In this document: positions 16,185 through 45,300 of the stretch, one piece after another
Position numbering within the stretch: position 1 is the stretch's first letter
Layout: every line of letters begins with the position of its first letter
Assembly (NCBI GenBank): GCA_039096225.1
Contig: JBBPEB010000002.1
Coordinates: 124,001 to 188,000, forward strand
Direction of reading: 5' to 3'
Source of the DNA: Blastocystis sp. Blastoise
Lineage: Eukaryota; Protista; Bigyra: Opalinata
Length of the DNA stretch: 64,000 nt
Notes under the pieces: model-generated
The model's database searches: none
Told to the model about the DNA's origin: nothing
What the model saw: only the letters and a program-made list of their open reading frames with translations
Position numbers and translations under genes: made by a program

Positions 16185-16229
16185 TTATACATATGTATAT
16201 ATATATAATATAATACTATAATATATATA

Positions 16230-19170: not shown

Positions 19171-20299
19171 TTTATTTTAATTTACATAGTTTTATCATGT
19201 ATATATAGGATAGGAAAGATGTTCCACATATTTACATATTATAGATATTATAATGATTAGTTTCATACTTTATATATATTATCTTGCTATTTATTTTTTA
19301 TTATGTTATATTTAATTGTATAGTATTCCTTTTGTTTTATAATTTTTTAGGAATGAAATTAGTGCAGAGAATTCTTATCGAATAGCAGAGAAATGCAATA
19401 CAAATTATTCAACATTACATTTCTATTAGATTACATTCTTTAATATGTTTATGGAAACTTATAGACCTTTCAAACATTTTCAATTTACTTATACATTTAT
19501 AAAATCAATAATTCGTTAAAATAAGATATGTTTTAAACAATAGTTTGTGTATTGTGAATTTTATCTTTATAAATAACTATACTAAATATATATTTTGATT
19601 CTCTATGGCCTTCATATTATAGATCAAATACTGTTCTATCAATATGTCTCACAAGAATGTTTAATTGTAAATAAGGTTTTTAAAATAACAAGTTTTTTGC
19701 TCTTTCTAAGTCTAAAAGCGTGTTTGCAATGAAATGATTTAGCTTAATACAAACATGATCATTTATAAATCAATTTTATAATCAAACAGACATTTTAGTA
19801 AAAAAGAGTAGAATTCTAGAATGTTAATACACCCCCTGAAAACAAAGAATTTTATATAGACATTTTCTATGAAAAAAAGATTTTATTTAAGGGCTTGGTT
19901 GTGTTTTTTAAAAAGCAGATGTTTAACATAATTATTTTTTTTTGCTTATTTGAAACTATTTTTTATATAAAGTACCTGAAACAGACTGACCTCCTGCACC
20001 AAAGTGACACTTTTTCTGAAAAACGTAATTCTCATGGGAATTTATTTTATTACAGTTAAAAATATAAAAAAACATGGAAATCAGTTTTTTTTTTAATTGT
20101 TAAACAAAACAATATGTGATAACAAATATATATAATAAATAAAAGAAATTATAATAAAAAAATGAAAAAAATATATAGAAATTATAATAATTAGCATGAA
20201 TATTAGTAGTATAGTATAAATTAGAAATTAATAAATTAAAAAATAAATATATATATAATTATTAAGAAGAATATATTATAAAGCATCATCAATTTAAGA

Positions 20300-20500: not shown

Positions 20501-21409
20501 CATGATTCTTTTGGGGTTTTTTTTGTATTTTTTTTTTGATTATTTGGGATTATTTTGTAATGACCACAAATTTTGCGTTTTTATATATATATGACTATTC
20601 AATTAAAAATATAAATGGCTAGTTTTTCCAAAATCAGGGGTGGCCCTTCCTTAAGAGAATAGATTAAAAGTAAGTTTATGTTCCGATTTTAATATGTATT
20701 CACAATTAGGCAAGAAAACTTGCGGTTTTATTATAATGTTACAACTCAACATTGGTAAATGATGTATAAAAACGGATAAAAAGGTATATATATGAAAATA
20801 GATAAATACATATTTACTTTTATTTTATTATTCTCTCATACTAGTTCTTCACTACTTCCAGCTGACACATGTCTCTGAACTGGATACTTTTGCTTATCAT
20901 TTATGAGGTTATAATTTAGTTTTAGAAATAGATGTTTTTGAATTTTTTCAAATGAAAGATTTGCGCGCTGAGTCTTTTCCAGTTCATTTAGGTAACTGAA
21001 GAGTTTTTCTACATAACAGTTTGAAAGTTTAATTGAAGCATACTGTTGCCCAATGATTTGAAATTTCTTTTGGTTTTCTGGTATTTCGAGGATGAAACTT
21101 TCTACTTCGTTCTTTGAAAGTTAAATATTATCTAAATCTTTATTTATAATATATTCTGATTTACATTTTACATAATAATTATATATTTCTTTTATATCAT
21201 CCATTAAAAGGCTATTTCTATATATAGGAAAACTCAATATGTACTCTATAAACGATTCGCAACTATTTAAGGGGATATGTAAATAGTCAAACACAACAAT
21301 TCTCTTATAGAATTCGTAAAGACTCTTATCTTCATTGAAATACTTCTTCATTTTGATAATACTGGAGTTTATATCTAAAGTATATATTATTTTATATATA
21401 TATATTATA

Positions 21410-21457
<48 letters not shown>

Positions 21458-22127
21458 GATGTATACTCTCTTTTAGTTTTTTCACTAATCTATTTACTTC
21501 CATGACCCCAAGGTTACTAACATTATCTGATACTATTATATCAATTTGATTATATGATTTATCCAGTTTATTTGAAAACCTGTTCATAATATAGAAACCA
21601 TTAACTGATGATATAGTATTTTCACAAATGGCGTTAGTAAACAGAACGAAGTCCTCACTTACTTCTTTTTTAGCGTCTAGTTCTACTTTTAACTGTATAT
21701 AATTATCATCATTCTCACATGTTGATATAATATCTTTTCCATATTCTGATTTAATTATTTCTTTCTTATTATCAATCATATATGCTCTTATAATATCTAA
21801 ATATTTTATATAGAAAAGAAGACACTCAAAATATGATTGCCATCTTGTAGAAGAGTATCTAGGAATAGTAGCTGCTAGTGAGTCATGTTGCTTTATAAAC
21901 AAATGGAGTTTCCCTCTTTTTATCTCTGCTTTGCTGAAATATTTATTTATGTTTGAAGAGAACTTATTAGCGTATATAGTTTTATCTCTTAGTTCTCTAC
22001 ATACTATATCTAGAATATGGCAAATACAAGGTACACGTTCATGATTATAGAAGTATCCAAGTTGCTCGTTACAGTATCTTATCATGGTACTATCATTATC
22101 TGTATGTATATATAAATATTTTCATTA

Positions 22128-25100
22128 TCTATATTATTAATATCCTTAATTTAGCAGCCCAAAAGTACGGTGTCTCACACACTTTCACCTTTATTGACTT
22201 TGTTATTAACTTTTATAAAATAAAAATAACATCATAAAAACCGGAACACAATTCTGAAAATGACTGTTAAAGAAATTTTTCGAAAACTCTAAATTTCTGG
22301 CTAAAAAACGCAAAAAACCATTTTCGCACAAAATTTTAACCAAAATTATTGGATTATTTTTATTTTAGCCAATATTCTTCATTTTTATAAAAACACTTAT
22401 TTTTCCATTTTCATTTTTTATTGTTTTCTTATTTTTGCTATATCACTTCACATACTCTATATTTATTTTTATAAAATTGACTTTTATTGACGGGTTGGTC
22501 TTATAAATAGTTTTGACGGGTAAATTTGTTTATATTAAGAACTTGACAACATATCAATACACACATCACTAACTTTAAACTCTAAAATGGTTTCAGTTGT
22601 CATGATAATGACCTCAACTACTCTGTAACAACAATAATTCCTTTAAATAACAACAAAAGACAAACTGATATCCAACACATTTCTTCTTTATAAACTTATT
22701 TGAGTTTATTTAAGTTATTTAGAATCAATACATGTCATTAGTATGTCTTTTAGTTGTTTAAAATGTTTTAATAAGAAAATATTTGATAATAGAAATTTTG
22801 ATGTTTTGATAGTATAGTTTGTTATTCGTCTTTCTTCTTGAGTTTTGGGTATTTTTTAAAAATAAAAGCATAATCATAATTAGGATAAGCTATTGCAGAT
22901 ACATATTTTTTATTTTATCTAAATATTTAATATTGACTGAGAAACATTCATTTATATGAAAAACATAAAAATGAAAATTTTCAAAAAAGGGTATAGTTTG
23001 TTATTGTGATTTCTCAATCAATTCTTGATAAAATAAAAAAGTTAAAACATATTTAGAAACTAGACATGTCATAGCAGATACATGTTTTTTATTTTTTTAA
23101 TTAATAAAAAACTCAGGTCACAAGAGTCAATAGTTGAACTCAATAAATAAATGACTTTTGAAATTTTTGTCAAAAATTTTTCATTTGTTTTTTGTTAATA
23201 TTCTCATCAATAATTAATATATTTGACATTTGACACTATATTGAATCACTACATATCAAAATAAACATATTTTACAATTTTATTTTGTTTTTAAAAGACT
23301 TTGACAACAGATCACCAGACAATGTTAACTTAATAAACTCTTAAAACGTTTTAATTAGTGCTGAGAATCACGCATGGACACTATATGTCACTTTTTTACA
23401 AAAGTTAAGACAACATGTTAGACTGATACTGACAATGTTTGTCTTAAGAAGTCAGTTATGAGTCATTATGAGTTGTAAATGTTATAAATAGTGTTTTAAT
23501 AAATAAATATGCTCTTATTAGTCTTTAATTAGTGAAATAAATCGTTTAAAAGAAGAAAACATTTTTGACACTATAGTTTATTTTGACAATTTTTCCATCA
23601 ATATTAATTTTTAAAAAATAAATAAAACCTATTTATAAACTAGACAACCTATAGTTTATAAATTTATAAAAATATTATCAAAATATAAAATAACTTTTGA
23701 GATAAAAAATTATATATGCAAAACATAAAAAAATTAATTTTTGAAAAAAGGGTATACTTTATAACATTAATTTCTCAGTCAATATTTAATTATTTTATAT
23801 AATTATAACAAATAAATATAGAGAATAAAACATATTAATTATATTATTTTTAATATTTAAAATTAATTAAGAAATGAGTTTAGTAGAGTCAATAGTATAA
23901 CATGTTAAAAAACTGAAAATTGAAAAATCATTTTTCTAAAAATTTTCTGAAAGTTGACAAATCAAATTCATATTTGACAATTAATTTTTACATTTTTGAA
24001 AAATAGAGTATGTATCTATTACATATGTAAAAAGAATGGTCAAAAATAAGTTAGACGAGTGTATGAGTATATGCACATGTTGACTCATAATTTTGAAAAA
24101 AGTAGTTAAATATGTCCTAAACCACATATCAAAGCAATTCTATAAATATTATCACTTTATAATGAGTTTAAAGGATAAAATAATTTTGAATTGTCTGTTT
24201 GACTGTCTTAAGTGAAGAGATTCAATACACTTTTTATAAAAATGAGTATTAGAGTGTTTAATGTTTATAATAATAAAAGAATTGTTTGAAATAAAGGTGG
24301 TTGTGTGTTTGACCAAAATGTTAAAATGAGTCTATTTTTTAAAAATGGTTGTAATAAGTATGTATAGAGTGTTTTTAGAGTGTTTCATATTAAAATCTAC
24401 AATAAATAAACATTTTAAGTTGTTCAAAAAATTATTTTTTTAGAATTACAATAGTTAAGTCAAGAGATTCAAGTCACTTTTTATAATAATAATAAATAGA
24501 CTTATTATAGAATATAAAATATTAAAAATTAGTTTAATTAAACATGGTTGACTGTTTGATAGGAGTGTTAAAATGGGTAAAAAGATTTTAATTGTTTCTA
24601 AAACTGTATAATACGTTTTTATGTCACTAAATACAAAATTATTATTGTTTAAAGAATGTTTTTTGTCTTTCAAAAGAACTCATTCTTTGTAATTGTGACT
24701 TTAAACAAAAGAGATTCAAGTTATTTTTTACAAATTAAAATAACAAATTCAATACATGTGTATATTAGCATAAAATTAGTTAAAATAAAAGTGAGTATAT
24801 GTATTTAAAAACGTTCAGTCTTTTAGAGTTTTTTTATGATAACTTATTTGTTTTAGAAGCTATATTGTATGTACAATAATAAAAGTTTCCAAAGTATTTA
24901 AATCTATTTAGTTATGAAATGAAATGTAATTTTTGTTTTATATTTTAGTTTTTATTTCTTATTTCTAGAATGATTTTGATAACACTATAAAAATTGAATT
25001 AAATTTGAATTAATTAATTTTAAATAATGAAAAGATAATTTCTCTATAAATATTCTCTTTTACTTAAAACGAATAGATTCTATTAATGATAAATATTAAA

Positions 25101-26184
25101 ATAAGACTCTAATTTTTTTGTTTATTATATAAAGTAATAAATATCTTTTAATTATTAAGAGTACTTTTGTATTAATAATTCAAACTAAAATAAGTATAAT
25201 AAAAGAAAAATTATAATATTTATCAAATAATATCAAGATATGATTACTATTTATATAATTAAACATTTATTAATTGAGAAAAGCTGTATAATAAAATTTC
25301 TAAAATATTTATATAATAGTATATATAAAAGGAAAGGATAAAATATAAAAAAACAAATAGATATCAAAATTATAATATTTTAAAAATAAAACAAAACAAT
25401 ATATGAAAAGAATAAAAAAGAATATATAATATTTTTTTAGACAAGAGAATAAGCTATTTCTCACAATAATAATTATATAGACTAATTCAAATAAAACATA
25501 AATATTTAAAGGTAGGGTATAAGTGATAATAATATGTTTTAAAAGAAAAAGTATTTTATAATCATATTGATATTATTTAAAATACTAAATATTTATAAAA
25601 CTAAATGAATTGATAAAATACATAGAAAGTTATAAATGAAATAACAAAGAAAAGTGAATTAATATTGAAAACTAAAAACTAAATAGAAATAGAAATAGAA
25701 ATAGAAATAGAAATAGAAATAGAAATAGAAATAGAAATAGAAATAGAAATAGAAATAGAAATAGAAATAGAAATAGAAATAAGATCAAAAATAAAACACA
25801 AGAGTTAATTAATTATCATTGATAAACAATAAATATATATAGTCAATAATAAAAATGGCTAAAAAGAATATTAAAAAAAAAAAGGAAATAATACTCAAGA
25901 ACATATAGAATGTTAAGTAAGAATTATCAATATGTATGAATTAAATTATTTAAAATACTAAATTGAAAATTAAGATTAGAAGATAACAATTAAAAGCAAT
26001 TGAAATAATATTTTATAAAATATGAAATAGTTTTAATCCTAAAAAAAAATAAAAACAGAAATGAATAACAAAAACATAAGAATAAATATTCATTTTTTAA
26101 AATTCAATGTAAGATATAACAATTGAGAGATAATAATTATCTAAACTCAAGCGTAGGCTGGCGTAGCCAGTCGTGAAACGCTTG
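22128..26184 (+). mobile_element. Non-autonomous Helitron family C, copy 1
   Basis: A|TCTATATTATTAAT start; hairpin ggctggc-gta-gccagtc then CTTG|T; clean A|T insertion without TSD. Confidence 0.88.
25681..25780. repeat. (AAATAG)n array inside Helitron C
   Basis: Direct reading; variant array at about 38058-38240. Confidence 0.9.
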
Positions 26185-27474
26185 TATTCTTTAAAACATT
26201 TTGTAATTATTTTTTGATAATCTATATGAGTAAAGCCACTCATTTCATATACACCTAGAAGGAACACATTCTTTGAATCAAGAGGCTTTACAAGGATGCC
26301 AAATACTTCTCTTCCTCCTTCATCAGTGGTACCATCAATAAACATCTCAATTTTTCTATTAAAAAGTATTATTTTTAGCTTTTCTTTTTCTATATTATAT
26401 AGTTTAGGAATAGTAGTATTGGATAGTGTTCTTAATGTAGGGATATCATTACAATTGATTATATGTCTAACAGCGAAATATTTATATTCCTCTGAATCTA
26501 GGAATCATAAAGGACTATATATTTATATAAGAAGTATAGCCATATCTTCACCAATATTTGTATTTTTACATTTATTTTTTATTTCATTATTTTCTTTTTT
26601 TCTAGTTTCAAAATGTTGCCTATTTATTATATGTTTTTTTGTTTTAGATGAGAGATTATGTTTGAAGAATTATTGTATAGATATGATTGTTTACAGCACT
26701 CACAAAGGATCTTATTATCAACTGGCTTTAAGCAGCATCTATCTTGGTGAAAACGGTTTTCTGGATCATCAAAAGTCTGTAATCACCTTTCAAGCGTCAT
26801 CTTATTGTTATGTCTTTGATTTATAGAAGTTTTCCTTTCTTTATTTTTTTCTCTAATTGCTTCTGACATTTTCATTACGGTTTCCTAAATATGAATATTA
26901 CTATTATTTTCTTCCACGAGTTGTTGCGTCTCCTGTTGGTTATTCTGCTGCTATTCATCATTTATATTATTATCTTTTTCACCATTAATGTTCTGATTTG
27001 TCGATGTTTTTCTTGTATTGTTTTCAGAAATGTTTTTCTTCTGTTTTCGATGTATTATATTAATTTTTTCTGTGTTTCTGTTGCATTCCATTCTTTTCTT
27101 TTTGGATGCTATAATTAATTATGTTAAGTTTAAAAAATTTAAGTGTAAAAATAGTATACATTGTTTTTGTTGTTTATTCATAATAAAAAATCTTATTTAA
27201 AAGTTTAATTCGTTATAAAAATGGTAAAAGAAAAATAAGTTAAAATTATTTCTTAAATCTAAATAGATATGGCTATTTTTCTTTATTATTCATGAAATAT
27301 TCCGTCTAATAATGGGTTTTTTATTTCAAGATAATTTTGGCTTTTTTTTGCATAATATTATAGAAAACTAGAAACGTTGTATCTTCATAAAAACTGTGAA
27401 TACCAAATATTTTTTTATAAAAATACCATATTTAGTACTTCATATATACATAACTGCTATTAATATATTAGAAT

Positions 27475-30149
27475 ATATATATATGAGAATAGGCAAAAAA
27501 ATTCCCATTGGTCAGTTTTTGGAAAATGCATTTGATTGGCTACTATATACTATAGTTTGTCGCCGCAACTCCTCTAAACTTACGGGGAGTTAACTTTTGA
27601 GTGAAACACAGTTCAATAGGATATAACATGTAGTTGTGCACCATATATTTGGTTAAGCGATATAATTAATAATTAAAAAGATATTAATAAAAGAACAGAA
27701 AACATGATTTTTGAGTCGTTTTTGATTGGCTCTTTGGGGTGACCCCGATAAAAATTGTTGACCAGACAATTGGAAAATAAACATGGGGTAAACTTGATTT
27801 TTTCTCAATCCCACAATATACGTTATCCGTGTTTATTCTTTATATTTATCTATTTTTTAATACTTTTTCATATTGAACACGTGAGGCCTTAACGGTCAAA
27901 TTTAGATTCTTATTTTGACATGATATTCTGATTCAGGAGGTCGAAAAACCTAGGTGTACCAATTTTGAGTTCCTGAGGACGATTTTTGAGTGATCGATAT
28001 TTTCTTCGATCTTCTTATAATGGACTAATATTGTATAATGGTAATCAATAGGTCCTCAAACTACTATAGTTAAAACAAGGTCTTAAAATAATGAGTTTGA
28101 GTGTCACAATTTTGAAAAATGTGAATTAAGTGGTCTTAGAGGATAAGATTCAATATAATGACTTTTGTTTAGTAAACTAGAGATAATACTCTATTCTATG
28201 TTAAAAGGAGAGTCAAAATTATGATGGTCAAAGTGTATCACCAAATGACAAAATGTGTCTTAAAAAGTAAAAGTGTTTGCATATGTGTATAGAATCATGT
28301 ATTAAGTATATTCTATGAATAAGAACTTTAAATAAATAGTTTAAGGTTGCCAAATTTAAATAAATGTGTAAAACATAGTCTTAAACTATGAATAAAAAAT
28401 TTATAGATTTTAATTAGTGTACAGCTGTAGTAGCTCTACAACATATCAAAAGTGCAAAGAAAATAATTTTTAGAGAGTGGATGTGTGAGGTGTTGTGAGA
28501 GTTATTAAAAATTTATTTTTACTTCAGTTTATTTAAAATCGTGAATTTCGTGCACTGTAGAAAAATTGAGTCAAAAAATCAACTCTAAGGGTCTTAAATT
28601 TAAAAAAATGTAAAAATGAGTGACTTAGAGGACGAGATTCAAAATAAGAGTGTTTATTCATTAAACTAGAGTGTATGAGCTATATTATGTTAAAAGAAGG
28701 GACGAAAATGTTTTGATCAAAGTGTATGACCAAATGGTAAAGTGTCCTTAAAAAGTCTAAAGTGTTGACTAATGTGCTTATAGAGTCATATAAAGTCTAC
28801 TATGTAAATATTAGCTTTTAAAAATATGTTTAAGCCTTTCAATTAGTAAAAATATGTTCAAAGAGAGTCATAAAATGAGAGTTTTAAGAAACGAGATATT
28901 GTTCAGTATACACTAAGAGACACTCTACAACATATCAAAAATATAGCAAAAACTATTTTTAGAGACTGGATGTGTGAAGGGTTGTGAGAGTTATTGAAAA
29001 AATATTTTTACTTCAGTTTATCCAAAATCGTGTTTTTGGAACACTGTAGAAAAATTAACTTCAAAAATCAACTCTAAGGGTCTTAATTTTAAAAAATGTG
29101 AAAATGATTGACTTAGAGGACGAGATTCAAAATTCCCCATCGCTTTCATATAATTAGACAACACACTCTATATTATGTCAAAAGGAGGGATGAAAATATT
29201 TTGGTCGAAGTAAATGAGCAAATGCAAAAGGTTTACAAAATGTTTTAAAGTGATCACCAATGTGTAGCTATGGTCATATTAAGTAAAGTGTGTAAATATT
29301 AGCATTTAAAAATGAGTTTAAGTGTGTCAACTTTTCATAATGTGTCAAAAAGGGTCTTTAAGAAAGAGATTCAAAACATTTACTTTTATTTAATAAATAG
29401 TATGATAAACTCTATATTATATCAAAAGACTGACGGAAACTGTTTTGATACAGTGGATCTTGAATGGGTAAAGTCTATTTAAAAGTTACTATTTTGAGTT
29501 ATTTATGTTAAAATCATTATTTGAGACGAATATAAAAATATTAACTTTTTAAATAATGTTTTAGTTGTCAAAGTTAGAATGAATGCTGACTTTGTTATGA
29601 TTAAAGCTTTCTAATTCTTTTAAAAAGTATTAAAATGAGTTAAAATTATTATATTATGCTTATTTAAATGAATTTTATGAATTAAAAATACTTTACACTA
29701 CTTCACATTGGTACTCATTTCTAAAGTTATTGACTTTAAAAACTCAAAGAATGTTTTAAACAGTTGTTTAATTATTACTAAATACAAAATATATTTTAAA
29801 AATAAATTGTTGTGAAAAAATTGACTTAGAAAGTGATTTTAATTAAACAATAATTTTTTCTCTTTTTTAATTTCTTATTTAAAAAGTCTAAAATAATCTT
29901 ATATCAGGAATTGAACCTGATTACAATCATAAAATAATTGTAACTCTCCATATAGAGTATAAGAAATTAATATTTAATAAATAATAAATAATATATATAA
30001 TATATAATATATAATATATAATAAATGACTCATATTAAAAACTATATATATATAATATATAAGATAAAAGATAATAAATATTTTTTATATACTCTTTATG
30101 CAGCCGCGGTCCGGGGCCGTTAGGCACTGGACCTGCGGCGTGACCCTAG
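27475..30149 (+). mobile_element. Helitron family D, copy 2 (5' TC lost)
   Basis: Near-identical to D1; ends in hairpin-CTAG at 30149. Confidence 0.88.
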
Positions 30150-30549
30150 TTAGAATATATATAAATAATCATTATAATCAACATAAATAAAAAGAGATAA
30201 ATAATCCATATTTTATAAACATTTTTATAAATATACTTAAATAATTATAAATATAAACAAAAGAATCAGTCAAATTTCATTTTTTCATTATTTTTTGCAT
30301 ATTTTTGTATATGCAAAATCCAAAACTGGAAGACGAAATCCAAAAATTTGACAATCCCTACAACAACGTCAAATACAGAATAATTAATATAAACAAAGAA
30401 TTGTGTATTTTTTTCCACTTAATTATTTTCTCAATAATTTACAACAATAAAAACATAAGCATTTTGCCAAGTTTATCGCGGTATTAATAGTACTGAAAAA
30501 TAGACTGTCCTGAGTCAAGTTTTACAATTTAAGGCGTCCTGAGTCAATT

Positions 30550-31036: not shown

Positions 31037-31054
31037 ATATATTATTACATCACA

Positions 31055-31674
31055 ATTTGCTCTCAGCTCTCACTCACAAAGATATTCACGGGGCGGCTAA
31101 ATATAAAGAACGGTATATACGGGTAAAAGCCGCGAATGTAAAAAAACTTTCCCGTGAATACACATGAACATGTGCATTGAGTTGAATTTCTCAAGTAGTA
31201 ATATATTAGAAAGGTGGTTCGAAAGAATAGAAAACAAAGACAATATAGATATAAAAAATCAAGATCAACTAATTGTAAGATTTACTTCTGACTTTCGAGT
31301 CAAATACTCTTATGATGATCTTTGTTTCGTGTTTCGCTGAGAGCAAATTGTGATGTAATAATGCGTCATCGCTCAATTTGATTGGAGGAATCTTGAGTTT
31401 CTCCGATCGGATTGGATAAGTTGTGTTTGGTTGTAAGTGTAATTCTTAATATTTATAATTAGGGTCCCAAACCTTTAAATTGAAATAACTTTTTATCCAG
31501 AAGGAATTAGACCCTAAAAATAGCAAAAAAAGAGTTTTGGGAATGGGTACAATTTAATTTTTATTGACTGGTGATTAGGTCCTGACAAGATATAAGGGCA
31601 TATTCTGTATTTTTAATTATGCTGACGTGGTTTATATTTATTTTATTTTATAATTTATTTTATAATTTATTTTA
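31055..31674. repeat. Viral common/control region, copy 1
   Basis: Matches 36100-36720; the only difference I noticed is one T in a homopolymer. Confidence 0.92.
31344..31380 (-). promoter_or_regulatory. Putative rolling-circle origin hairpin with nonanucleotide CATTATTAC
   Basis: Minus strand caaattg-agc-gatg-acgcattatta-catc-a-caatttg; fits NANTATTAC. Confidence 0.7.
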
Positions 31675-31697: not shown

Positions 31698-33423
31698 ATG
31701 CAAAATAATAATACTAACCCTGTATATTAATAAATATATTTAAGTTATTGTTATATAGAACCGTCAGTCTCAATATTGGACTCTTACTTTATTTGGTGAA
31801 GACCTTTTACATTTTAATGAAGTAATCCAACCCAGTTGGAATAGTAATGGTCTTCCATTTGAAATAGTATATAAATATATTATATATATATATATATAGA
31901 ACTATGTTGCTTTATCAAGAGAAGTATCTCCGACTACAAACAACACTCATGTACATTTATATATGGAAATGAAAAAAAGGTTAAGAAGAAATCAGATAAT
32001 AAGATTACTATCCTTAGAGCATACTGATGTAAGACCAAGGGAGTGGTCACGAGAGGCAACTTTAATTTATTTAAGTGAAGTATATATTTATATATATTAA
32101 TTTAATTATTTAATTATAAATATTAGATAAATGAAATAGATGAATATTACAATACAAGCAATACACTTGGATATGGAGCAAACTTTCAAAATGGAATGCA
32201 TCGCGATTTAATAAATGCTTCTACTTATAATGGTGTTCTTTATAATATGAATAATAATAATAGCTTTGCTAGAATAGACCCAATATCTACAGCTCCTATG
32301 AATTTTACTCATAATAAAGTCAAATATTCTAAAAACAAAAAACGTATATACATTATAATTTATATTATATATATAGATCCAAAAAAAATATCTGAAGAAG
32401 TTGCTTCAATGATAAAAAATGGTTGTACTTATGAAGATATATGGGAAGAATATGCTTCCTTTGCCCTATTACATTCAAATAACATAAAAAAAGCAATCTA
32501 TGACTTTAATACCAAAAAAAGAAATACTGCACCTATAGTTTTATATTTATATGGGAAAACTGGAGTAGGTAAAACTTATACAGCTAAAAAAATATGTGAA
32601 CTAGGCGAAAATGAAGATGGTAAAGGATCTTACTACATGAAGAATGGAGATATTAAATGGTATATATTATATTATATTCTATATTTATAGGTGGGATGGA
32701 TACAAAGGTCAGTTTGGCATCATTATTGATGATTTTAGAAAAATCTATAATGATAAAGACCTTCTTCGTATTTTAGATTATTATGATGTAGGAGTGGAAA
32801 CAAAAGGTTCAACAGTAAAAATCACCTCACCTCTAATTATATTTACGTCTGATAGAAGCTTAAAAGAAAATTTCAAAGAACTTTCAAATGATGAATTAGA
32901 ACAACTACTCAGAAGATTCTACAATGAATATGAATTACTTGAAGATAATACTATTGATTTCAAATATAGCAAAGCTAAAGATGATTACATCAAAGGTATC
33001 AGACGTAATCTACTATATAAAGATGATGAAACCAAATATATACAAGCCGCTGATATTATGATGAAAATTAATAATCAATACAAACCAACAGTCAATATAC
33101 CCATACAAATAGAACTAGATAATGAACTTACCCTTAGCTCACCTCCAACAACTCCTCGTATATCTCTTCCTACTATTGAAATAACTACTCCTAAAAAAAC
33201 AAATTTCTGTCACAAAAGACCTAATACTCCTATACCTATTCTAGATTTATCATCTTCAGATAACGAATATAGTAATGAACTCATTGATCTCACTTTCACT
33301 GATAATGAAGAAGACGATGAAGAATATTCTGATCATAATAAACCTATAAGTCTTTCATGGGATAGTAGCGAAGATGATTATTGTATACTCCCAGACTCTC
33401 AAAACATTAAACAAGAATTCTAA
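31698..33423 (+). CDS. rep: CRESS Rep1 (HUH endonuclease plus SF3 helicase), 6 exons: 31698-31721, 31759-31866, 31900-32079, 32127-32343, 32377-32659, 32691-33423; 514 aa
   Basis: Motif I YWTLTL, motif II THVHLY, motif III IYLSE, Walker A GKTGVGKT, KWWDGY restored by splicing, Walker B IIIDDF, motif C IFTSD, Arg finger LLRRF. Confidence 0.93.
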
Positions 33424-33708: not shown

Positions 33709-34947
33709 TTAAAATTTAGTTAAAGTATTTATTCCTTGAACCCATGGAGAAACACCAGGTATAGCACTAGCAGCTGTAGCTATATTTTGAACAGTTTCAC
33801 TATTCCAAGACCTTTTAAATTTATTCCAGAAATCAACTACACCATTCCACATAGTTTGAAAATCATTATAAGAAGAAGGATAACAAAAATCTAATGATTG
33901 AGTTAAAATAGCACAAGCATAAAGAGCTTGTTCATCTAATAAAGGAGGATTCTTTAATAATGGGAAATACTCACTATTATAAGAAGGAACTAACTCATAA
34001 CCATTACATATTTTTAAAGTAAATGGATTGTTAAAATTTGAACCTTCAACTCTAATAATACCAAAATTAAATCCAGTATGTAAGAAAGAAGGAACATATT
34101 CAGTTACTTCTATAGGTAGCATAACCTTAGTAAATATTCTTTTAGACATCCAAGTATCATAATCAAATATATTCATTTGAGCACTAGCACTTCCTAATAA
34201 TCCATTAATAAAATATTCATAACTATCTCCTGTATCAAGTTGTTTCTTTTGAAATATAGGTGGCCTATAATAATTCTTATAACCATAAGATAAATGTTGA
34301 GGCATATAACAACCATCAGGGACATTAAATACTTTATATTTTGGAGAATAAGAAGTAATAGCATTAGAATCTAAAGGAATATAAGGATTCATATAACTAT
34401 TAAAAGCTTGATAAGATAAATCTTGAGATTCTACACTACCACTAGTAGTATACATAGTATCTACACAATACGGTACTTGAATACCATATATAAGACCTTG
34501 CATATTATTAGTATTACCAGCCCATTTTAATGTACAACCACGAAATAATCCACGACCTAAATTAAAATCTTCTTGATTTTGCTGCCAATTAGGATCTTTA
34601 ACACCCATAATACATGTTTGAGATGATGATGTTTTATCCACAGTATTATACCAAGTAAATGTACCATAAATCAAAATAGGATAAGTAGACCATGGTGTTG
34701 CAATTATAGTAAAATTATTATATAAATCTGGGACAACAGCTCTAGGATCTACAAATGTATCTTGATCTATAGATATATTAAACTTATTATTTAAAGTATA
34801 AATCATGTGGGTTTGGCCATCAGGTACACCGTCAACAGGTATAGAAGTATCATCACAAGGATTAACGTAACGCTTAAGATAAAGGGCTCCCGCAGAGGAA
34901 CTAGCCATTGACAACTTGTCATTTATTATAGTACCTAAACTAGACAT
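33709..34947 (-). CDS. cap: Capsid protein resembling nodavirus/tetravirus self-cleaving capsid precursors, 412 aa
   Basis: N-terminal YLKRYVNPCDDTSIPVDGVPD and C-terminal YPSSYN-DFQTMW...AASAIPG resemble, from recall, the LKCAFAPPD...GIPD and gamma-peptide regions of nodaviruses. Confidence 0.75.
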   Translation of the reverse strand: MSSLGTIINDKLSMASSSAGALYLKRYVNPCDDTSIPVDGVPDGQTHMIYTLNNKFNISIDQDTFVDPRAVVPDLYNNFTIIATPWSTYPILIYGTFTWYNTVDKTSSSQTCIMGVKDPNWQQNQEDFNLGRGLFRGCTLKWAGNTNNMQGLIYGIQVPYCVDTMYTTSGSVESQDLSYQAFNSYMNPYIPLDSNAITSYSPKYKVFNVPDGCYMPQHLSYGYKNYYRPPIFQKKQLDTGDSYEYFINGLLGSASAQMNIFDYDTWMSKRIFTKVMLPIEVTEYVPSFLHTGFNFGIIRVEGSNFNNPFTLKICNGYELVPSYNSEYFPLLKNPPLLDEQALYACAILTQSLDFCYPSSYNDFQTMWNGVVDFWNKFKRSWNSETVQNIATAASAIPGVSPWVQGINTLTKF

Positions 34948-34989
34948 TTAAAATAATTTATGCAAAATAACAAAACATATTTATAAGAA

Positions 34990-35095
34990 AACGAATTTAT
35001 ATATACAGATAAACTGTCTCCTAATACGAATTTATATATTCAGATAAACCGTCTCTAAAAACAAATTTATATATTCAGATAAACTGACTCCATTA
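34990..35095. promoter_or_regulatory. Three 35-bp direct repeats in the divergent cap/ORF3 intergenic region
   Basis: a(c)gaatttatata-t(a/t)cagataaac(t/c)g(t/a)ctc repeated three times. Confidence 0.7.
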
Positions 35096-35145: not shown

Positions 35146-35892
35146 ATGCCTTATAGATACTCATCCAGATATAGAGGTACTCAACGTACCTATTATAGAA
35201 GAAGAAGATATAATAGAAATTCAAACGCTGTAACCACTTATAACAATGCAGTTAATTCTTTTAGAACAAATTGGGCAACTATCGCCGAAGATACTACCGT
35301 AGGTGGAATCGCAAATAAACACAAACTTAGGCACCAATTAATGCTTGTAGCCAAAAAATGTGGAAGAATGTACGTAGCTCAAGCTAGAACACTATTAACA
35401 TCAACAGATTATACTATACCAATTCAAATATTTATACCAAGCGCTACAGGTGACGACGAAAATGCAAAGAACATTAAAAAACTCTGCAACTCTACTATCA
35501 AACAAATTATAAACACAGTCTACACAATTAACAAAAACGGAATCAAAAAAGAATATATATATAGACTAAACGGTTTACTCTATACCTATCCATTCACTGC
35601 AGAACCACTCGCCTATGATTTCACACTACCCATCTACTATGCATCCGATGATTTTACAAAAGCAGAAACAATACTAGTTTTTATATACCAAATGGGAGGA
35701 ATCAACACATTTCCTATTATGTATAATATTTCAGAAGGAGGACAAATGACTTTCAGAACAGAACCACAATATAATACCGTTATCACTGCATTGTTCGACG
35801 AAGCTACAAGATACGTTGCCGCTGCACAAACAGCAGGAACATCACCTATGGTATACTATGCTCAAAATCTACCAGATAGATTACGACACTAA
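35146..35892 (+). CDS. Viral ORF3, 248 aa, Arg/Tyr-rich N-terminus (second capsid or nucleic-acid-binding protein)
   Basis: Intact intronless ORF starting MPYRYSSRYRGTQRTYYRRRRYNR, typical of CRESS capsid arms. Confidence 0.75.
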   Translation: MPYRYSSRYRGTQRTYYRRRRYNRNSNAVTTYNNAVNSFRTNWATIAEDTTVGGIANKHKLRHQLMLVAKKCGRMYVAQARTLLTSTDYTIPIQIFIPSATGDDENAKNIKKLCNSTIKQIINTVYTINKNGIKKEYIYRLNGLLYTYPFTAEPLAYDFTLPIYYASDDFTKAETILVFIYQMGGINTFPIMYNISEGGQMTFRTEPQYNTVITALFDEATRYVAAAQTAGTSPMVYYAQNLPDRLRH

Positions 35893-36099: not shown

Positions 36100-36720
36100 A
36101 TTTGCTCTCAGCTCTCACTCACAAAGATATTCACGGGGCGGCTAAATATAAAGAACGGTATATACGGGTAAAAGCCGCGAATGTAAAAAAACTTTCCCGT
36201 GAATACACATGAACATGTGCATTGAGTTGAATTTCTCAAGTAGTAATATATTAGAAAGGTGGTTCGAAAGAATAGAAAACAAAGACAATATAGATATAAA
36301 AAATCAAGATCAACTAATTGTAAGATTTACTTCTGACTTTCGAGTCAAATACTCTTATGATGATCTTTGTTTCGTGTTTCGCTGAGAGCAAATTGTGATG
36401 TAATAATGCGTCATCGCTCAATTTGATTGGAGGAATCTTGAGTTTCTCCGATCGGATTGGATAAGTTGTGTTTGGTTGTAAGTGTAATTCTTAATATTTA
36501 TAATTAGGGTCCCAAACCTTTAAATTGAAATAACTTTTTATCCAGAAGGAATTAGACCCTAAAAATAGCAAAAAAAGAGTTTTGGGAATGGGTACAATTT
36601 AATTTTTATTGACTGGTGATTAGGTCCTGACAAGATATAAGGGCATATTCTGTATTTTTTAATTATGCTGACGTGGTTTATATTTATTTTATTTTATAAT
36701 TTATTTTATAATTTATTTTA
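36100..36720. repeat. Viral common/control region, copy 2 (origin hairpin at 36389-36425)
   Basis: Direct repeat of 31055-31674. Confidence 0.92.
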
Positions 36721-36744: not shown

Positions 36745-37623
36745 ATGAGTGATAATAATAATGTTGTATTTATATAATTATTATATATATATGTATATAG
36801 TCACCACAAAGTCAATATTGGTTTTGTACACTATTCGGTGATGACCGAGATTTCTTTTTTCAAGAGACTCTACCTAATTGGGAGGAAAATGGTTTACCAC
36901 AGGAAATTATGTATGTGGCGTATGTAACTGAACCTAATAACGAAACACATAATACGCATACACATTTATACATTGAATTAACAACAAGAAGAAGAAGAAA
37001 TAAGGTCCGAAGAATGCTTCAGTTGGAACATACAGATGTTAGACCTCGTGATGGAACTCGTGAAAACGTACTATATTATTTATCAGAGGTATATACATAT
37101 ATATATGTATATATATATATATATAGATAAATAATTTACATGAAATATATCGTAACCAAAATACTAGAGGCTATGGAGCTATAACAAGTGGTACTCATCG
37201 TGATTTATTTGCAAGTCAAACTTTCAATGGAAGACTGTATAACTTAGAATCAAGAAACATAAGTAGTGAACCTTCTCCGTTATCACCTGGTCCTATTAGA
37301 TTTATTAAAACAGATGTTAAATATTATAAAAATAAAAAACATCCGAAAAAAAATTCCGAAGAAGTAGCTACAGCAATAAGGAATGGTAATACTTACGATG
37401 CTATATGGCACGAATTTCCGGGATTTACACTCTTACATTCACAAGCAATTAAGAGATTAATCTATGATTTTAATGAAAAGAAAAGAGTAGAATCTCCAGT
37501 AGTTATATATATATGGGGCGAAACTGGTTTGGGAAAAACCTATACAGCAAAAAAACTTTGCGAATTAGGTCCAAACAAATTAGGTGATGGTTCATATTAT
37601 TTAAAGAATAGCGATATAAAATG
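36745..37623 (+). pseudogene. rep: CRESS Rep2, divergent paralogue; exons 36745-36765, 36801-37088, 37127-37623; truncated in the next intron by Helitron C
   Basis: YWFCTL, THTHLY, YYLSE, GETGLGKT; frame open until the donor at 37624. Confidence 0.9.
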
Positions 37624-37646
37624 GTATATTAATATATTTATATATA

Positions 37647-39402
37647 CAAGCGTTTCACGACTGGCTACGCCACCTACGCTTGAGTTTTGATAGTTGTCAT
37701 CTCTTAATTGTTATATTTTATGTTTTTTTTTAATATTATGTTTATTTTTATGTTTTTGTTATTCATTTCTATTTTTTTTATTTTTAGGATGAAGACTATT
37801 TCATATTTTATAAATTATTATTTCAATTGTTTTAGTTGTTATCTTCTATTGTTTAGTTATTAGTTTAGTATATTCTAAATAATTCAATTCATACTTTATT
37901 GATAATTCCTATTTAACATTTTATATTACATTTTTTTGAGTATTATTTCCTTTTTTATTTAGTATCATTTTAGCTATTTTTATTATTGATTATATATATT
38001 TATTGTTTATTAATAATAATTGATTAGCTCTTGTGTTTTATTTTTGATCTTATTCATATTTCTATTTCTATTTCTATTTCTATTTCTATTTCTATTTCTA
38101 TTTATATTTCTATTTAGATTTCTATTTAGATTTCTATTTAGATTTAGATTTAAGTTTAGATTTATATTTATATTTATATTTATATTTACATTTATATTTA
38201 TATTTATATTTATATTTATATTTATATTTATATTTATATTTCTATATTAATTCACTTTTCTTTGTTAATTTATTTATAACTGTATTTGTAATTATAAATT
38301 CATTTAGTTTTATAAATATTTTATACTTTAAACAATATTATTATGATTATAAAAAATTTTTTATTTTAAAACTTAATATTATCAGTTATATCTTATCTCT
38401 AAGTATTTATTTTTTATTTTTAATTATTCTATATAATTATTATTATGAGAAACAACTTACTCTTTTGTCTAAAAAATATTATTTATTCTTTTATGAATTT
38501 TCTCATATATTATTTTATTTCATTTTAAATTATTATCATTTTTATCTCTATTTGATTTTTTATATTCTATCATTTCTTTTTATATATACTATTATAAATA
38601 TATATATTTAATATTTTATTATACCCCTTTTTCGTATTAATAAATGTTTAATTATATGTAATAGTTGCTATAGTTTAATACTATCAGATTCAAATGTTCA
38701 TAATATTATTCTTTTTTTATTACTCCTATTTCAATTTGGATTTTTAAAAACAAAAAATATTTTTAATAATTAAAAAATATATATTATTCTATATAATCGA
38801 TAATAACTCATAGAGTTCTTTTATAAATATTTATCATATATAGAATTTTTTTTATAAAAGAAAAAAGAATTATTTTTAAAAATTATCTATTCATTTTTTA
38901 TAATGTTTTCAAAATCATTTCATTAAATGAAACGAAAAACTAAATATAAACCAAAAATTACATTCTATATCATAAATAGATTTAGTACTTTAAAATACTT
39001 TACCTATTGTACATGAAATAAAGTTTATAAAACAAATAAGTTATTTTTAAAAAACTCTAAAAAACTTTTAACATTTTTTTCAAACACATTCACTTTTATT
39101 AAAACGAATTTTATATTCATATACATATATATTGAATTTATTATTTAATTTGTAAAGAATAACTTGAATCTCTTTTGTTTAAAGCCACAATTACAAAAAA
39201 TGAGTTCTTTTGAAAGACAAAAAACATTCTTTAAGCTATAATATTTTTATATTTAGTGACATAAAAACGTATTATACTGTTTTAGAAGCAATTAAAATCA
39301 TTTTACCCATTCTAACATTCCTATCAAACAGTCAACCATATTTAATTAGACTAATTTTTAATATTTTATATTCTATTATGACTCTATTTATTATTATTAT
39401 AA
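37647..39402 (-). mobile_element. Helitron family C, 3' portion
   Basis: Reverse-complement CTTG/hairpin end at 37647; homologous to about 24480-26184. Confidence 0.85.
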
Positions 39403-42342
39403 CTAGCGGGTGGCATCGGCTTCGCCGATGCTTCGTAACCTTTAGAGCTTTACAATGTCTTCCCTGACTTTTGTGACAATTGCCATGACAATAGCTGACT
39501 GTCACTTTCAGCCAGACTTAAATTGACTTAGTCATAAAAATATAAAATTACACTGTCAAAAATAAATATTTTGTCACAAATTTTGGTGACAATTGCCACG
39601 TGGCAATTTCGTCCAGTGACAGGGAAGACACTGGAGCTTTATAATTTATATAAATATTTTTTTAAATGTATACTATCATATAGATACATAAAAATACTTT
39701 TTAAAGTAGTTTATAGTTTATAATAGTTTCATTAATGACACATATCATAATAGTTTCTTAATATAAGTTACATTTATCTATGAAAGCTATTATGATATGA
39801 AAATAAACAATAATTCTATTTATTATTTCAAGTTATTCTGCTTAAATTATTCATTCTGGAATGTTTATTTATTAATACATATTTTTATTTTATTCGTTTT
39901 ATATAAAAAAAATAATTTTATAATTTTATGCTATCAGTGACTAAATCAAAATGTTTATATATATTCTTTACTCTATTTATTCATTTATCAAATTGATTTT
40001 ATGGTATCATGCATATATTCTATCTAAATAGATCTTATTTAGATTATATAGTTTTTTAAATGAATATATATGTTTCGTGATATGAAATAGTAGTAGTTAA
40101 ACTTTTGAATTTTTAAAATTTTAATTTTTTTTTTTTTCCTATAAAAAACAACGCGTTGTATTTTATAGATAAAAAAAGAATTAAAATTTTAAAAATTCAA
40201 AAGTTTAACTACTACTATTTCATATCACTAATATCTACTTATCTATATATAATAAAAATGCATGATAGTTTATGAATAAGAATTTGTATTCATATTTTCT
40301 TTTTTAATAATAGATAATTTTGTTTTTATATTCATAAAGAATCCATTTCATAATAAATATGTCTAAAAGTAATGGAACCAAAATTATGTTTGCTTATATT
40401 TTAAAAATTTATAAATTAAATGATTAAGTTATTCCATATTTATATATAAAGCTACTTTTAAAAGAACACAAAAGTATAAATAAAAAAATAATTATTGATT
40501 TTTTAAAATGAATTCTTATGATATGAAAATATATGTCATACTTATATATGATATATACTAAAAATAATTTTTAGTTTGACTAATATAATTTTTCATTAAT
40601 ATAAATAAATATATATAATCCTTGTAGTTATAGAATAATTTTTCAGTCAATTAATAGTGTTTATAGGGATACAATAATCAATAAACAGTATTAAGAAATT
40701 ATTCTTTTTTTGAGAGACGTGCCACTTTGAAATTTTATTTCTCAGTCAATTTTTATTTTTAAAAACTAATTTTTACAAATTTATAATTAGAATAAAACAT
40801 ATTATATATTATATAAATATTGACTTTATTGATAGAAAAATGATGGTTGACATTGACCTTAGTTAAAACAATAAAAATTAAATTTTTGAAAAATATCAAA
40901 ATTTCTTTTTCATTTTTGACCCCGAGATTCAACGATATTTTATATTTTGACTTTATATATGTATGTAATATTATAATAACTATTAATATGACTTTTAAAA
41001 AGTGTGTTAGGACGACTTTTCTTGGTACAAAGTCGCAATTAACTTTTTTAACCTTTTTTAAAAAGCATTTAAAGATATGAAATATCATAATGTAACATAT
41101 AAGGCATCCTTACACCAAATATGAAGTCAAAACTCGAAATTAAAGAGGTCGAAATCTGCCGATACACCAACTTTGTTGTCATAAATATGCAATAATGACA
41201 GATTTGTGTATAATATAGGTCACTGTATTCATAAATGTAGTCATAAATTGATTTTATGAGGGTCAACCAAACAGATATCCACTCATTCTTGTCTTTAAAG
41301 AAACCTGATGGGTTCAATGAGTGGCGAATTTTATCTAAACTACAAATATTAAGTATAAAAATTTTTATTAAGAGTAAAATGATTTCGATATCTCTTCTAC
41401 CTTTTTATTTTAAAAATGTGTTCAAATAATTCATAAATATAAACATCTAAAATAAACCCTGTAACGTTTAATAATTAATAAAATAAAAAATGTTGACAGA
41501 ACACGCAATTGAATTTTTTTGTTAATTTTTCAACATGCTAAAAACAGGTTTTAATGACTTTTAGCATGGTTTCATGAGTTATCATGATGATCCAGATAGT
41601 TTTCATTAAATTTTAAAAGGGTCAAAAGAGAATGTGTCCGATATCTCAAAACTTTGTGGATCAAATTTTTTCAAAGCTTCATACATTATCATTATTTAGG
41701 TTATTTTATGCATATAGGTTAAAGTTAAGTCTATTAAGTCACTTTGATAACTGATTATTTGTCTAAATTGTTTCTTCTATTTTAAAAGTTGTTTTTATGT
41801 GTGGCGAAAAATGTTATAAATTAAAAAATAAATTTATAAATAATAAATATAAAAAAATAAATAAAATATATAAAAAGAAGAAATTAAAAAAGAAAAAGAA
41901 ATTTTTAAAATAAAAGATAAAAAAAAATGGATAACAAATTTACAAAATAAAGTTTTGCAAAAGAAAAAGAAATATAATTGAATTTTTTTTGAAAAAATGA
42001 AGACAAAATGATTAGAAGTATAAACTTTGACCATGTCAATAAATTTTTGGCGCGAAAATAGACAAAGATATTTGTGTTCTTTTTATCCAATAAGAATGAG
42101 TTTTCAAAAATTTTTAATCGATTTCATAGGACGGCCAACTTGCTAACGGTCGGCAAAACTTCTCGGACTATTTTGAGGCCTTAGATATGGAATTTCTGAA
42201 AAATTAAAAAAACTAAAATAAAATTTGGAACATAATATATAACATACTAAAAGGATATTATCATAGCCTTAACCATCATAGAATAAACGGTCCGTGAACT
42301 TGAGACACAAATATCCAACTTCTATTGCCTTTATATATAAGA
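39403..42342 (-). mobile_element. Helitron family A, copy 3 (contains the hAT MITE at 39453-39633)
   Basis: Near-identical reverse complement of A2. Confidence 0.92.
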
Positions 42343-45300
42343 TATAGAAATGTTGTGGATATACTACAGACTTTATAGAGTTACTAGATAATAATCAAAT
42401 AAGAGAATCTACCTTTAACTATTACAAGTCCAAACAAGGTGATACTAGTAATGAAAATGTAACAATCAACGATCAACATTAATTACTTACAAGCTCAAAT
42501 AATGAAGTTACTGCTAAGTCTTCTAAAAATAATAGTCAAAAGAAAACATATAAAGAATTTTTTGAAAGAACAAATATCGATGAAGAAAATGTAAATAATA
42601 TCAATGATGATTATGAAGAAGAAGTTGAAGAACATGATATAGCTCCTGAAGAAATTGAATTATTTAATCATACAAGCGTTTCACGACTGGCTACGCCAGC
42701 CTACGCTTGAATCTAAATAAACATAAAAAAATAATTTGTAAAAAGACTATCTTTTCATTATATAAAAATTATTTATTTCAAATTTTGTTTTGTTTTATTA
42801 ATATTATCAATAATGGTTTCATATTTTATTAATATTATCAATAATCGTTTCATAAAAAGAAAATTAAAAAATAAAAATTAACAATATATAAAATAAAGAT
42901 TACATTCTATTTCATTAGTAAATATATTTAAATACTTAAAAAACTATAGCTATTGTTTATAAAATATAGTTTATACAACAAATAAGTTATCATAAAAAAA
43001 CTCTAAAAAACTATAACATTTTGAAATACATATACTCACTTTTATTAAAACGAATTTTATATTAATATACATATATATTTAATTTATTATTTTAATTTAT
43101 AAAAAATAACTTGAATCTCTTTTGTTTTAAGTCACAATTACAAAAAATGAGTTCTTTTGAAAGACAAAAAACATTCTTTAAACAATAATAATTTTGTATT
43201 TAGTAAAGAATAAATGTATTATACTGTTTTAGAAACAATTAAAATCTTTTTACCCATTTTAACATTCCTATCAAACAGTCAACCACATTTAATTAGACTA
43301 ATTTTTAATATTTTATATTCTATAATACGTCTATTTATTATTTTTATAAAAAGTGACTTGAATCTCTTGACTTAACTATTGTAATTCTAAAGAATCAAAT
43401 TTTTAAACAACTTAAAATGTTTATTTATTGTAGATTTTAATATAAAATACTCCAAAAACACTCAATACTTTCTTATTCTAACCATTTTGGAAAAATAGAC
43501 TCATTTTAACATTTTGGTCAAACACACAACCACCTTTATTTCAAACAATTCTTTCATTATTATAAACATTAAACACTCTAATACTCATTTTTACAAAAAG
43601 TGTATTGAATCTCTTCACTTAAGACAGTCAAACAGACAATTCAAAATTATTTTACACTTTAAACTCATTATAAAGTAATAATATTTTCAGAATTGTCATG
43701 ATATGTGATTTAGGACACATTGAACTACTTTTTATAAAATTATGAGTCAACATTTCCAGTTTGTCATTCACTCGTCAACTCCACTTTTGACCATTTTTTT
43801 GAGAAACGCAATACATATAATGTCTAGTTTTCAAATATGTAAAAATTAATTGTCAAATATGAATTTGATTTGTCAACTTTCGGAAAATTTTTTAGAAAAA
43901 CGATTTTTCAATTTTCAGTTTTTTAACATGTTATACTATTGACTCTACTGAACTCATTTCTTAATTAATTTTAAATATTAAAAAATATATTATTAATATG
44001 TTTTATTCTATGTATTAATTTGTTATAATTATATAAAATAATTAAATATTGACTGAGAAATTAATGTTATAAAGTATACCCTTTTTTCAAAAATTAATTT
44101 TTTTATGTTTTGCATATATAATTTTTTATCTCAAAAGTTATTTTATATTTTGATAATATTTTTATAAATTTATAAACTATAGGTTGTCTAGTTTATAAAT
44201 AAGTTTTATTTATTTTTTAAAAATTAATATTGATGGAGAAATTGTCAAAATAAACTATAGTATCCAAAATGCTTTCTTCTTTTTAAACGACTTATTTCAC
44301 TAATTAAAGACAATTAAAAACAAATTTATTTATTTTAAGCTTATTTATGACATTTAACACTTATTAAGACTGATAACTGACTTTTTAAAACAAACATTGT
44401 CAGTATCAGTTCAACATGTTGTCTTAACTTTTGTGAATGAGTGATGTATAGTGTTTATGAATGTTTATATATAGTAATTGAAACATTTTAAAGTTTATTG
44501 AGTTGACATTATTTGGTGTTTTTTCACATTATAAAAAATAATATCACTATTTAATACCAATACTTTATATCTGAGTATTACATGATCATATACACAGAAA
44601 TAATACAAAATCAAATTGTTTAAATAGACTTTAACATTTCGAGATACACTCGACCCACTGGTAGGCATTTTCACGGATATCAAAAAAGCGACAAATGAGA
44701 AAAAGTAAACAAAAAATTTTAAGACACTTTTCAGTCATAGCGAATAGAGTGGCCAAAAAATAGGCTAATTTTGTCGGGTATGTTGTTTGTTTTCATTCGT
44801 TCAGAATTCTTTTAGAAACGTCATTTTTTATTTATTTATCGTTGTGTGAATGATAATAAAAATATATATAACAAAAGACAATAGATAATAATAAAATAAT
44901 TATAACAATAAAAAGAAAAGAAAATAGCAATTATTTGAGTTTGTTTTGAGTTGATTGTGAACCATTTTGAGGACTATACATATAAAAATAATAGAACTAA
45001 TAATAATATAGATAATATATAATATATACCTTCTAGTAGCACCTGTAGACAACCCAGTTAATAGAAACTACAACTATAAAAATAAATGTATAAATAAATA
45101 TATAATATAGCAATATACCTTCAACAATCAAGCAGCTTTTGGCCAACGAGAAACACTGAGAACACCTAGAACCTATATAAAAATTAAAATAGTTAATTGC
45201 AAAAATAATAATAATAATATATACCTTTGAAACCAGATAGTGAAGGACCAAGGAGACCTGAGACAGAAGTTGAACCTATAGAAAATGATAAATTATAAAA

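Follow-up and report, generated by a model that had tools for sequence, protein, structure and literature searches.

In Flock House virus the capsid protein has a catalytic residue, Asp75, and a scissile one, Asn363, and residues 364-385 form gamma-1 (PMC8046363). Entry by particles that cut their own capsid protein and free a membrane-piercing peptide has so far been documented for RNA viruses. Recombinant particles of Lake Sinai virus 1/2, made in E. coli, remain uncleaved at pH 6.5-8.5; the authors name two differences from cleaving viruses, the missing catalytic acid and the Asp that follows the Asn, and report cleavage when both positions were changed jointly (PMC9892032). Capture of RNA-virus capsids is already known in ssDNA viruses. 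The CRESS family in which noda-like capsids are known is that of the bacilladnaviruses (PMC9426455, PMC12667125, PMC11903649), and a word search for gamma or cleavage reports in the available text of these three papers and of a review of ssDNA capsids (PMC11945456) returned none. Cruciviruses and other hybrids likewise carry an RNA-virus capsid captured by a CRESS replicon; these captures are tombus-like, bacilladna-like or ciliovirus-like, with no gamma-type cleavage described in the available text (PMC7000223, PMC7468197). CRESS elements are also known from Blastocystis genomes, where CRESSV1 (pecoviruses) has been linked to Blastocystis and a larger unassigned Rep cluster (cluster 1) and one Cap-like element were listed; the text available of this paper makes no mention of nodavirus-like capsids (PMC9615429). 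A literature search over main texts, with few subscription journals, found no description of the capsid/Rep group reported here.

We analysed a capsid gene and its surroundings in a 64,000-nt stretch of Blastocystis DNA, called the window throughout. The features are collected in Table 1. NCBI has the identical protein on a 1.32-Mb contig of Blastocystis sp. Blastoise, where its annotation is "hypothetical protein".

Table 1. Features of the capsid gene and of the viral element that contains it (window coordinates)
Feature	Position	Strand	Details
Stem-loop	31034..31053	+	nonanucleotide TATTATTAC (31040-31048) on a 5-bp stem; near left junction; candidate origin
27-bp inverted repeat	31041..31362		arms 31041-31067 and 31336-31362 flank a structured non-coding region
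Rep (HUH nuclease + SF3 helicase)	31698..33423	+	514 aa after removal of five GT-AG introns (37, 33, 47, 33 and 31 nt)
Capsid precursor ORF	33709..34947	-	412 aa; sequence, profile and structure matches
Gamma-like tail, residues 362-412	33712..33864	-	51 aa, 5,789 Da; amphipathic helix 366-383 (33799-33852)
YPSSYN, residues 356-361	33865..33882	-	Asn361 (codon 33865-33867), predicted scissile residue
NPCDD..GVPD, residues 29-43	34819..34863	-	Asp32 (codon 34852-34854), at the Flock House Asp75 position by offset
Three 35-nt direct repeats	34988..35092		between the divergent capsid and Arg-rich genes; putative regulatory role
ORF with Arg/Tyr-rich N-terminus	35146..35892	+	248 aa; head-to-head with the capsid gene
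Identical copy of the 560-nt block 31055-31614	36100..36659	+	5,045 nt from the first copy, roughly the length of one genome; non-coding
Second, paralogous Rep	36745..37650	+	56% identity over 268 aa; intron-containing; ends at host repeat from 37644

The original prediction had read this ORF as a noda/tetravirus-type capsid and had set a structural match to that group as one of its tests; the match was obtained. The single capsid sequence matched Lake Sinai virus capsids (E 4e-6) exactly through the NPCDD..GVPD and YPSSYN segments, and a 33-sequence profile matched the capsids of Lake Sinai, Helicoverpa stunt, Providence, N-omega, Nodamura, black beetle and Flock House viruses (E 1e-47 to 2e-9) and that of Pariacoto virus at E 0.005. 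PF03566 scored the capsid at 13.1 bits (E 0.029), below the curated cut-off of 25 that is passed by the relatives P0081 and P0083, and the Pfam search gave no match to PF01829. By ESM Atlas features the capsid scored 0.95 to Peptidase_A6 clusters. The AlphaFold model (pLDDT 75.8, pTM 0.77; poor at residues 232-257 and 270-287) matched solved sinai-, tetra- and alphanodavirus capsids in Foldseek at E 7e-18 to 1e-10, with Lake Sinai virus on top, and noda/tetra/sinai chains in VIA-align at Z 22-30. The alignment to the uncleaved Flock House capsid (Z 28.1, rmsd 2.8 over 304 residues) ran through the gamma helix to residue 383. Lower Z scores were obtained with bacilladnavirus capsids (19.9 and 16.9), birnavirus VP2 (17-19) and plant-virus jelly-rolls (8.2 for the first of them, otherwise 8 or less). 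Judged from sequence and model together, the protein is almost certainly a jelly-roll capsid of the alphanodavirus/tetravirus/sinaivirus type with an interior helical domain. Its size and the Foldseek TM-scores by target (0.76 for Flock House, 0.45 for N-omega virus) argue that it lacks an Ig-like domain, and nodavirus size without this domain would imply a T=3 shell, T=4 being unexpected.

The N-terminal P.DD...GVPD segment (residues 30-43), the YPSSYN segment and the 51-residue tail, with both of the tail stretches quoted there, were all found in the ORF where the original prediction had placed them. They exceed chance, as the homology matches run through both segments and the tail is unusually amphipathic (see below). 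Model residue 361 was the end point of the VIA-align alignments to 12 mature beta chains, and Asn361 paired with residue 363 of Flock House, Nodamura and black beetle viruses, 361 of Pariacoto, 570 of N-omega, 575 of Helicoverpa stunt and 556 of Providence virus; exceptions in the structural alignments were one procapsid chain that ended at 362 and one partial chain that stopped at 357/359. This Asn is invariant in the 33 aligned homologues (33/33) and in all 23 rows of a clade set that comprises the window capsid, P0003-P0011 and P0077-P0089, many of them near-copies. The next residue is Asp362 in the window capsid and Asp in 16 of the 23 clade proteins; in viruses that do cleave, the scissile Asn is followed by Ala, Ser or Phe. 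Among the reference sequences given in the original prediction, the start of Flock House gamma, AAASNIPG and the YPAT of Helicoverpa stunt virus are correct, but N-omega virus reads YGATDN-F and not the YPATDN-F given for omegatetraviruses.

The tail had been described as amphipathic-looking, and it does contain the most amphipathic helix of the protein. The hydrophobic moment of the 18-mer 366-383 was 0.72, a value reached in 2 of 2000 shuffles, and the maximum among the 344 windows before Asn361 was 0.44; the AlphaFold model has a helix at residues 363-381. In VIA-align the tail overlaid two uncleaved Flock House mutants up to residue 383, which places its helix on gamma-1. Across the clade set the highest 18-mer moment falls in the tail in 21 of 23 proteins, with Trp367 conserved in 23/23 and Phe363 in 22/23. 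The tail is under purifying selection in the two pairs compared (pN 0.20 vs pS 0.75; pN 0.13 vs pS 0.63), and between L002 and L004, two of the metagenomic loci described below, its identity is 81% against 53% for the body.

The position of the putative catalytic acid was derived from alignment offsets. Profile A2 begins at its position 27 (Ser17) on residue 60 of Flock House and black beetle viruses, and profile A3 at positions 18 and 22 (Asn9, Ser13) on residues 52 and 56 of the same two; all these starts give an offset of 43 and would therefore set Asp32 on residue 75, assuming no gap. When the model was aligned by structure to Flock House virus, the first paired residues gave offsets of 43-45. 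With the D75N mutant chain the N-terminal start was lost in both profile searches: one search started at offset 44, and in the other the best stretch was C-terminal. On the gap-free assumption, Asp32 would thus share the register of Asp75 in Flock House virus. We take residue 68 of Pariacoto virus to be its catalytic Asp. In a single-sequence match Cys31 aligned gap-free to LSV2 Met83, which has been equated with Pariacoto Pro67 (PMC9892032), and in the single-sequence alignment Gly occupies the Asp32 position in Lake Sinai virus.

Of 44 homologues, 14 have Asp at position 32, 20 have His and 8 have another residue, with 2 unmatched; within the clade set, His is found there in 20 proteins and Asp in 3. 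A quick capsid tree (midpoint-rooted, with long branches, and built without bacilladnavirus and named nodavirus rows) joined the His forms in one branch (support 100), sister to the window capsid and P0003 (support 96). Asp forms stand on both sides of this tree while His is confined to one branch, so Asp is probably the older state. Either cleavage has been lost in the His branch, or His has replaced Asp as the acid; in inteins, cyclisation of Asn is assisted by His. The proteins of this branch (P0005-P0011, P0077-P0089) share a fixed DPAHG.C...PDED segment with a loop three residues shorter than in the window capsid, and its His-Cys pair could have a catalytic or metal-binding role. A different set of relatives, P0012, P0015 and P0019 (513-515 aa, from contigs of up to 9.4 kb), combine NPCDD with an extended basic arm, a Ser that follows the Asn, and an amphipathic tail of short length; canonical cleavage seems most likely to be found among these three.

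The capsid gene sits, near certainly, in an endogenous CRESS-DNA virus within the Blastocystis contig. The DNA-virus setting that the original prediction had assumed is borne out by the neighbouring Rep gene, with a Rep also beside the capsid in 4/4 metagenomic loci. GC content in the window is low, at 13-34% per kb, and repeats are abundant. With the five predicted spliceosomal introns removed, the Rep frame is open and carries the motifs WTLTLF, HVH, YLSE, GKTGVGKT, IIIDDF, FTSD and LLRRF; motifs I and II, Walker A, B, C and the Arg finger are all present, and PF00910 was found in the last two exon-bearing ORFs. Motif III is YLSE in both window paralogues, the usual consensus being YxxK. The paralogue has some intron positions in common with the first Rep, the second intron being absent. 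The Rep introns are AT-rich, and their shortness fits Blastocystis, whose introns are 30 nt long in human subtypes and longer and variable in the low-GC clade (PMC10690189), which implies nuclear transcription of the gene.

The stem-loop with TATTATTAC lies close to the end of a host repeat, and CATTATTAC occurs on the minus strand at 31363. The downstream 560-nt copy leads into the second Rep. NCBI has two accessions each for identical capsid and Arg-rich proteins from the same contig against one copy in the window, so the insertion has probably been duplicated recently. Nested host repeats surround the element (24481-26187 / 37644-39402; 13503-16214 / 27476-30178; 16226-19172 / 39401-42346), one pair being 99.9% identical over 2.9 kb, and ORFs 21405-22085 and 26097-26345 resemble fragments of DNA transposases.

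The product of the capsid ORF has no basic N-terminal arm: by sequence count there are three K/R across the 28 residues preceding NPCD, with a net charge of -8. The same holds for the whole clade set (23/23), with 0-4 K/R ahead of the motif and net charges between -1 and -12, unlike bacilladnaviruses above 4 kb, which need a basic arm (PMC11903649). For this reason the protein encoded head-to-head with the capsid, with 9 K/R in its first 30 residues and a net charge of +13, is likely to be a separate genome-binding protein. A homologue search with it returned only itself, and its match to the corresponding protein of L002 and L004 was limited to the basic N-terminus (probability 14%). We also considered whether the L002/L004 form could be a retained ancestral jelly-roll capsid and rejected this, as its model is all-helical (pLDDT 65); the model had no match in BFVD at E<=0.001 and resembled only generic four-helix bundles (best Z 7.7).

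A scan of metagenomes confirmed four loci (L001-L004) among 205 pattern matches. The pairing of capsid and Rep in all four points to an unnamed DNA-virus lineage. The Reps of L002-L004 matched the Pfam helicase at E 2e-11 to 7e-10, and that of L001 was recognised by Walker motifs in a cut-off ORF. All four loci have His-type capsids and intron-less Reps. L002 and L004 also have an Arg-rich gene placed head-to-head with the capsid, L001 and L003 being too short upstream to show one. L002 (5,586 nt) has a 15-nt terminal overlap and carries TAGTATTAT at an 18-bp stem, and its genes fall into clusters of 29-52 members, none with a virus name; many capsid homologues lie on contigs of 5.4-6.5 kb. 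Scans of viral contigs with the capsid, profile A1, P0003, P0004, P0012 and the L002 Rep, and of genome contigs with P0010, gave no confirmed locus. Some further features of these loci may be recorded here. In L003 (935-4117) two paralogous Reps of 56% identity diverge from a long DNA hairpin with branches, near 2500-2640, much as the window has an equally similar pair. Farther out is a GC-rich gene that clusters with proteins giving weak M12/M10 metallopeptidase scores, which suggests that the L003 copy, too, may be integrated. A fourth ORF in L002 (1805-3478, 557 aa) and L004 (1553-2950, 465 aa), from clusters of 52 and 9 members, had no Pfam match and hardly any mutual similarity, and is absent from the window element. 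At its N-terminus the L004 Rep (3-1313) carries a zinc ribbon of the RanBP type (PF00641, E 3e-5).

Among described systems, the capsid protein alpha of alphanodaviruses (Flock House, Pariacoto, Nodamura and black beetle viruses; Peptidase_A6) resembles the window capsid in fold, size, structural score (Z 25-28), scissile Asn and an amphipathic tail, of 44 residues against 51 here, and would also do so in the Asp that by offset corresponds to Asp75. The window capsid differs in its ssDNA/Rep genome, its protist host, the missing basic arm and the Asp in place of Ala or Ser after the Asn; identity is about 15%, and cleavage in the window capsid is only predicted. Sinaivirus (Lake Sinai virus 1/2) gives the best sequence match and has corresponding YLNP..GxPD and YP..YN-D motifs, but with Gly at the Asp32 place, a large P-domain, a basic arm, no cleavage and an RNA genome (PMC9892032). 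N-omega, Helicoverpa stunt and Providence viruses (Peptidase_A21) are alike in Z (25-30), in the aligned scissile Asn and in the weak PF03566 match; alphatetra- and carmotetravirus capsids have about 640 residues and an Ig-like domain, whereas the window capsid has 412 and none, and by sequence there is no Glu at the place of N-omega Glu103. Nodaviridae, tetraviruses and Sinaivirus are recognised by an RNA genome with RdRp. Here the neighbours of the capsid gene are a Rep and the Arg-rich ORF, with Rep in each of the metagenomic loci as well. We do not regard the element as a member of the RNA-virus families, nor do we assign it to the Bacilladnaviridae.

The Bacilladnaviridae come close in being Rep-encoding ssDNA viruses of 5-6 kb with a noda-type T=3 capsid and a stramenopile host (diatoms). 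However, their capsids score 6-12 Z units below noda/tetra/sinai capsids against the window capsid. In the solved noda-like example compared, ClorDNAV, residue 388 of 390 aligns with Asn361 and the window capsid extends 51 residues beyond (PMC12667125); ClorDNAV therefore lacks a gamma tail. A phospholipase A1, to which a function in lysis or entry has been ascribed as a proposal, is encoded by three bacilladnavirus genera (PMC11903649). The Z gap makes it likely that the capsid was captured independently of that of bacilladnaviruses; the hosts of both are stramenopiles.

How far the resemblance extends to function can be argued in several ways. We put at about even the chance that the window encodes the capsid of an integrated Rep-encoding circular ssDNA virus whose particles, once assembled, self-cleave after Asn361. 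Asp32 would be the catalytic acid that aids the cut, and the 51-residue tail would be freed as a membrane-active gamma peptide, whose exposed amphipathic helix (366-383) would breach the endosomal membrane and let the DNA reach the nucleus. The intron-bearing Rep would be transcribed there, and within the shell the Arg-rich protein would condense the DNA, a role suggested by the capsid's lack of a basic arm. Of the two differences held responsible in Lake Sinai virus, the window capsid has the acid at the catalytic place, but it also has the Asp after the Asn. The persistence of Asn and tail without Asp32 in 20/23 clade proteins appears to count against cleavage, as does the fact that an amphipathic helix is equally expected of an uncleaved interior helix. 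The chain may thus be uncut as in Lake Sinai virus, fold and motif having been kept and the tail, still attached, serving as an interior helix and arm to brace the shell and make contact with the genome. This has a less than even but still substantial probability. Lake Sinai capsids are the top matches in both sequence and Foldseek searches and their C-arm is uncleaved and structural (PMC9892032), and the Asp after the Asn and the change of Asp32 to His in most of the clade point the same way. Against it stand the Asp32 of the window capsid where Lake Sinai virus has Gly, and the tail itself, which starts with F..W and forms a basic, strongly amphipathic helix as in Flock House gamma. Moreover, N-omega, Lake Sinai and Flock House capsids lie within about 1.5 Z units of each other in their scores to the model, and the non-cleavage of Lake Sinai virus is known from particles made in E. 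coli.

The cut at Asn361 could also take place with the tail acting mainly as a shell lock or genome selector and only in a minor way in membrane penetration. The N-omega gamma peptides are locking helices (PMC4147699), Flock House gamma has a role in genome recognition (PMC8046363), and in the window capsid residues 1-20 of the tail sum to a net charge of no more than +1. We nevertheless consider this improbable, as gamma is also lytic in both viruses (PMC4147699, PMC8046363) and the three Trp and the moment of 0.72 suit a membrane interface. That the capsid gene is a separate RNA-virus insertion, lying by chance beside a Rep in a repeat-rich host region, would agree with the host repeats that crowd the flanks, with the similarity of the window Rep to the L002-L004 Reps in the helicase only (25-30% identity), and with the absence of genomic context for Asp-type relatives in the scans with P0003, P0004 and P0012. 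We think it very improbable indeed: homologous capsids are paired with Rep in four of four independent loci, the head-to-head Arg-rich gene is found again in L002 and L004, and capsid, Rep and Arg-rich ORF lie within one 5,045-nt unit bounded by the 560-nt exact repeat and the nonanucleotide stem-loop.

Taken more broadly, and as a tentative proposal that we hold at well under even confidence, the self-cleaving capsid may belong to an undescribed family of CRESS-DNA viruses of gut protists (5-6.5 kb) that captured the whole noda/tetravirus maturation machine independently of bacilladnaviruses. Such a family would use a self-released lytic entry peptide, would have shifted genome binding to the Arg-rich protein, and would have His for the catalytic Asp in one large branch. 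Blastocystis provides a host for this otherwise unnamed group, which is present in dozens of public assemblies. It offers a natural series for probing what decides cleavage, the question left by the uncleaved Lake Sinai capsid: the catalytic position can be Asp, His or Gly, and the Asn can be followed by Asp or Ala. A lineage that keeps the whole module would show if the entry mechanism of an RNA virus outlasts a switch to a DNA life cycle in the nucleus.
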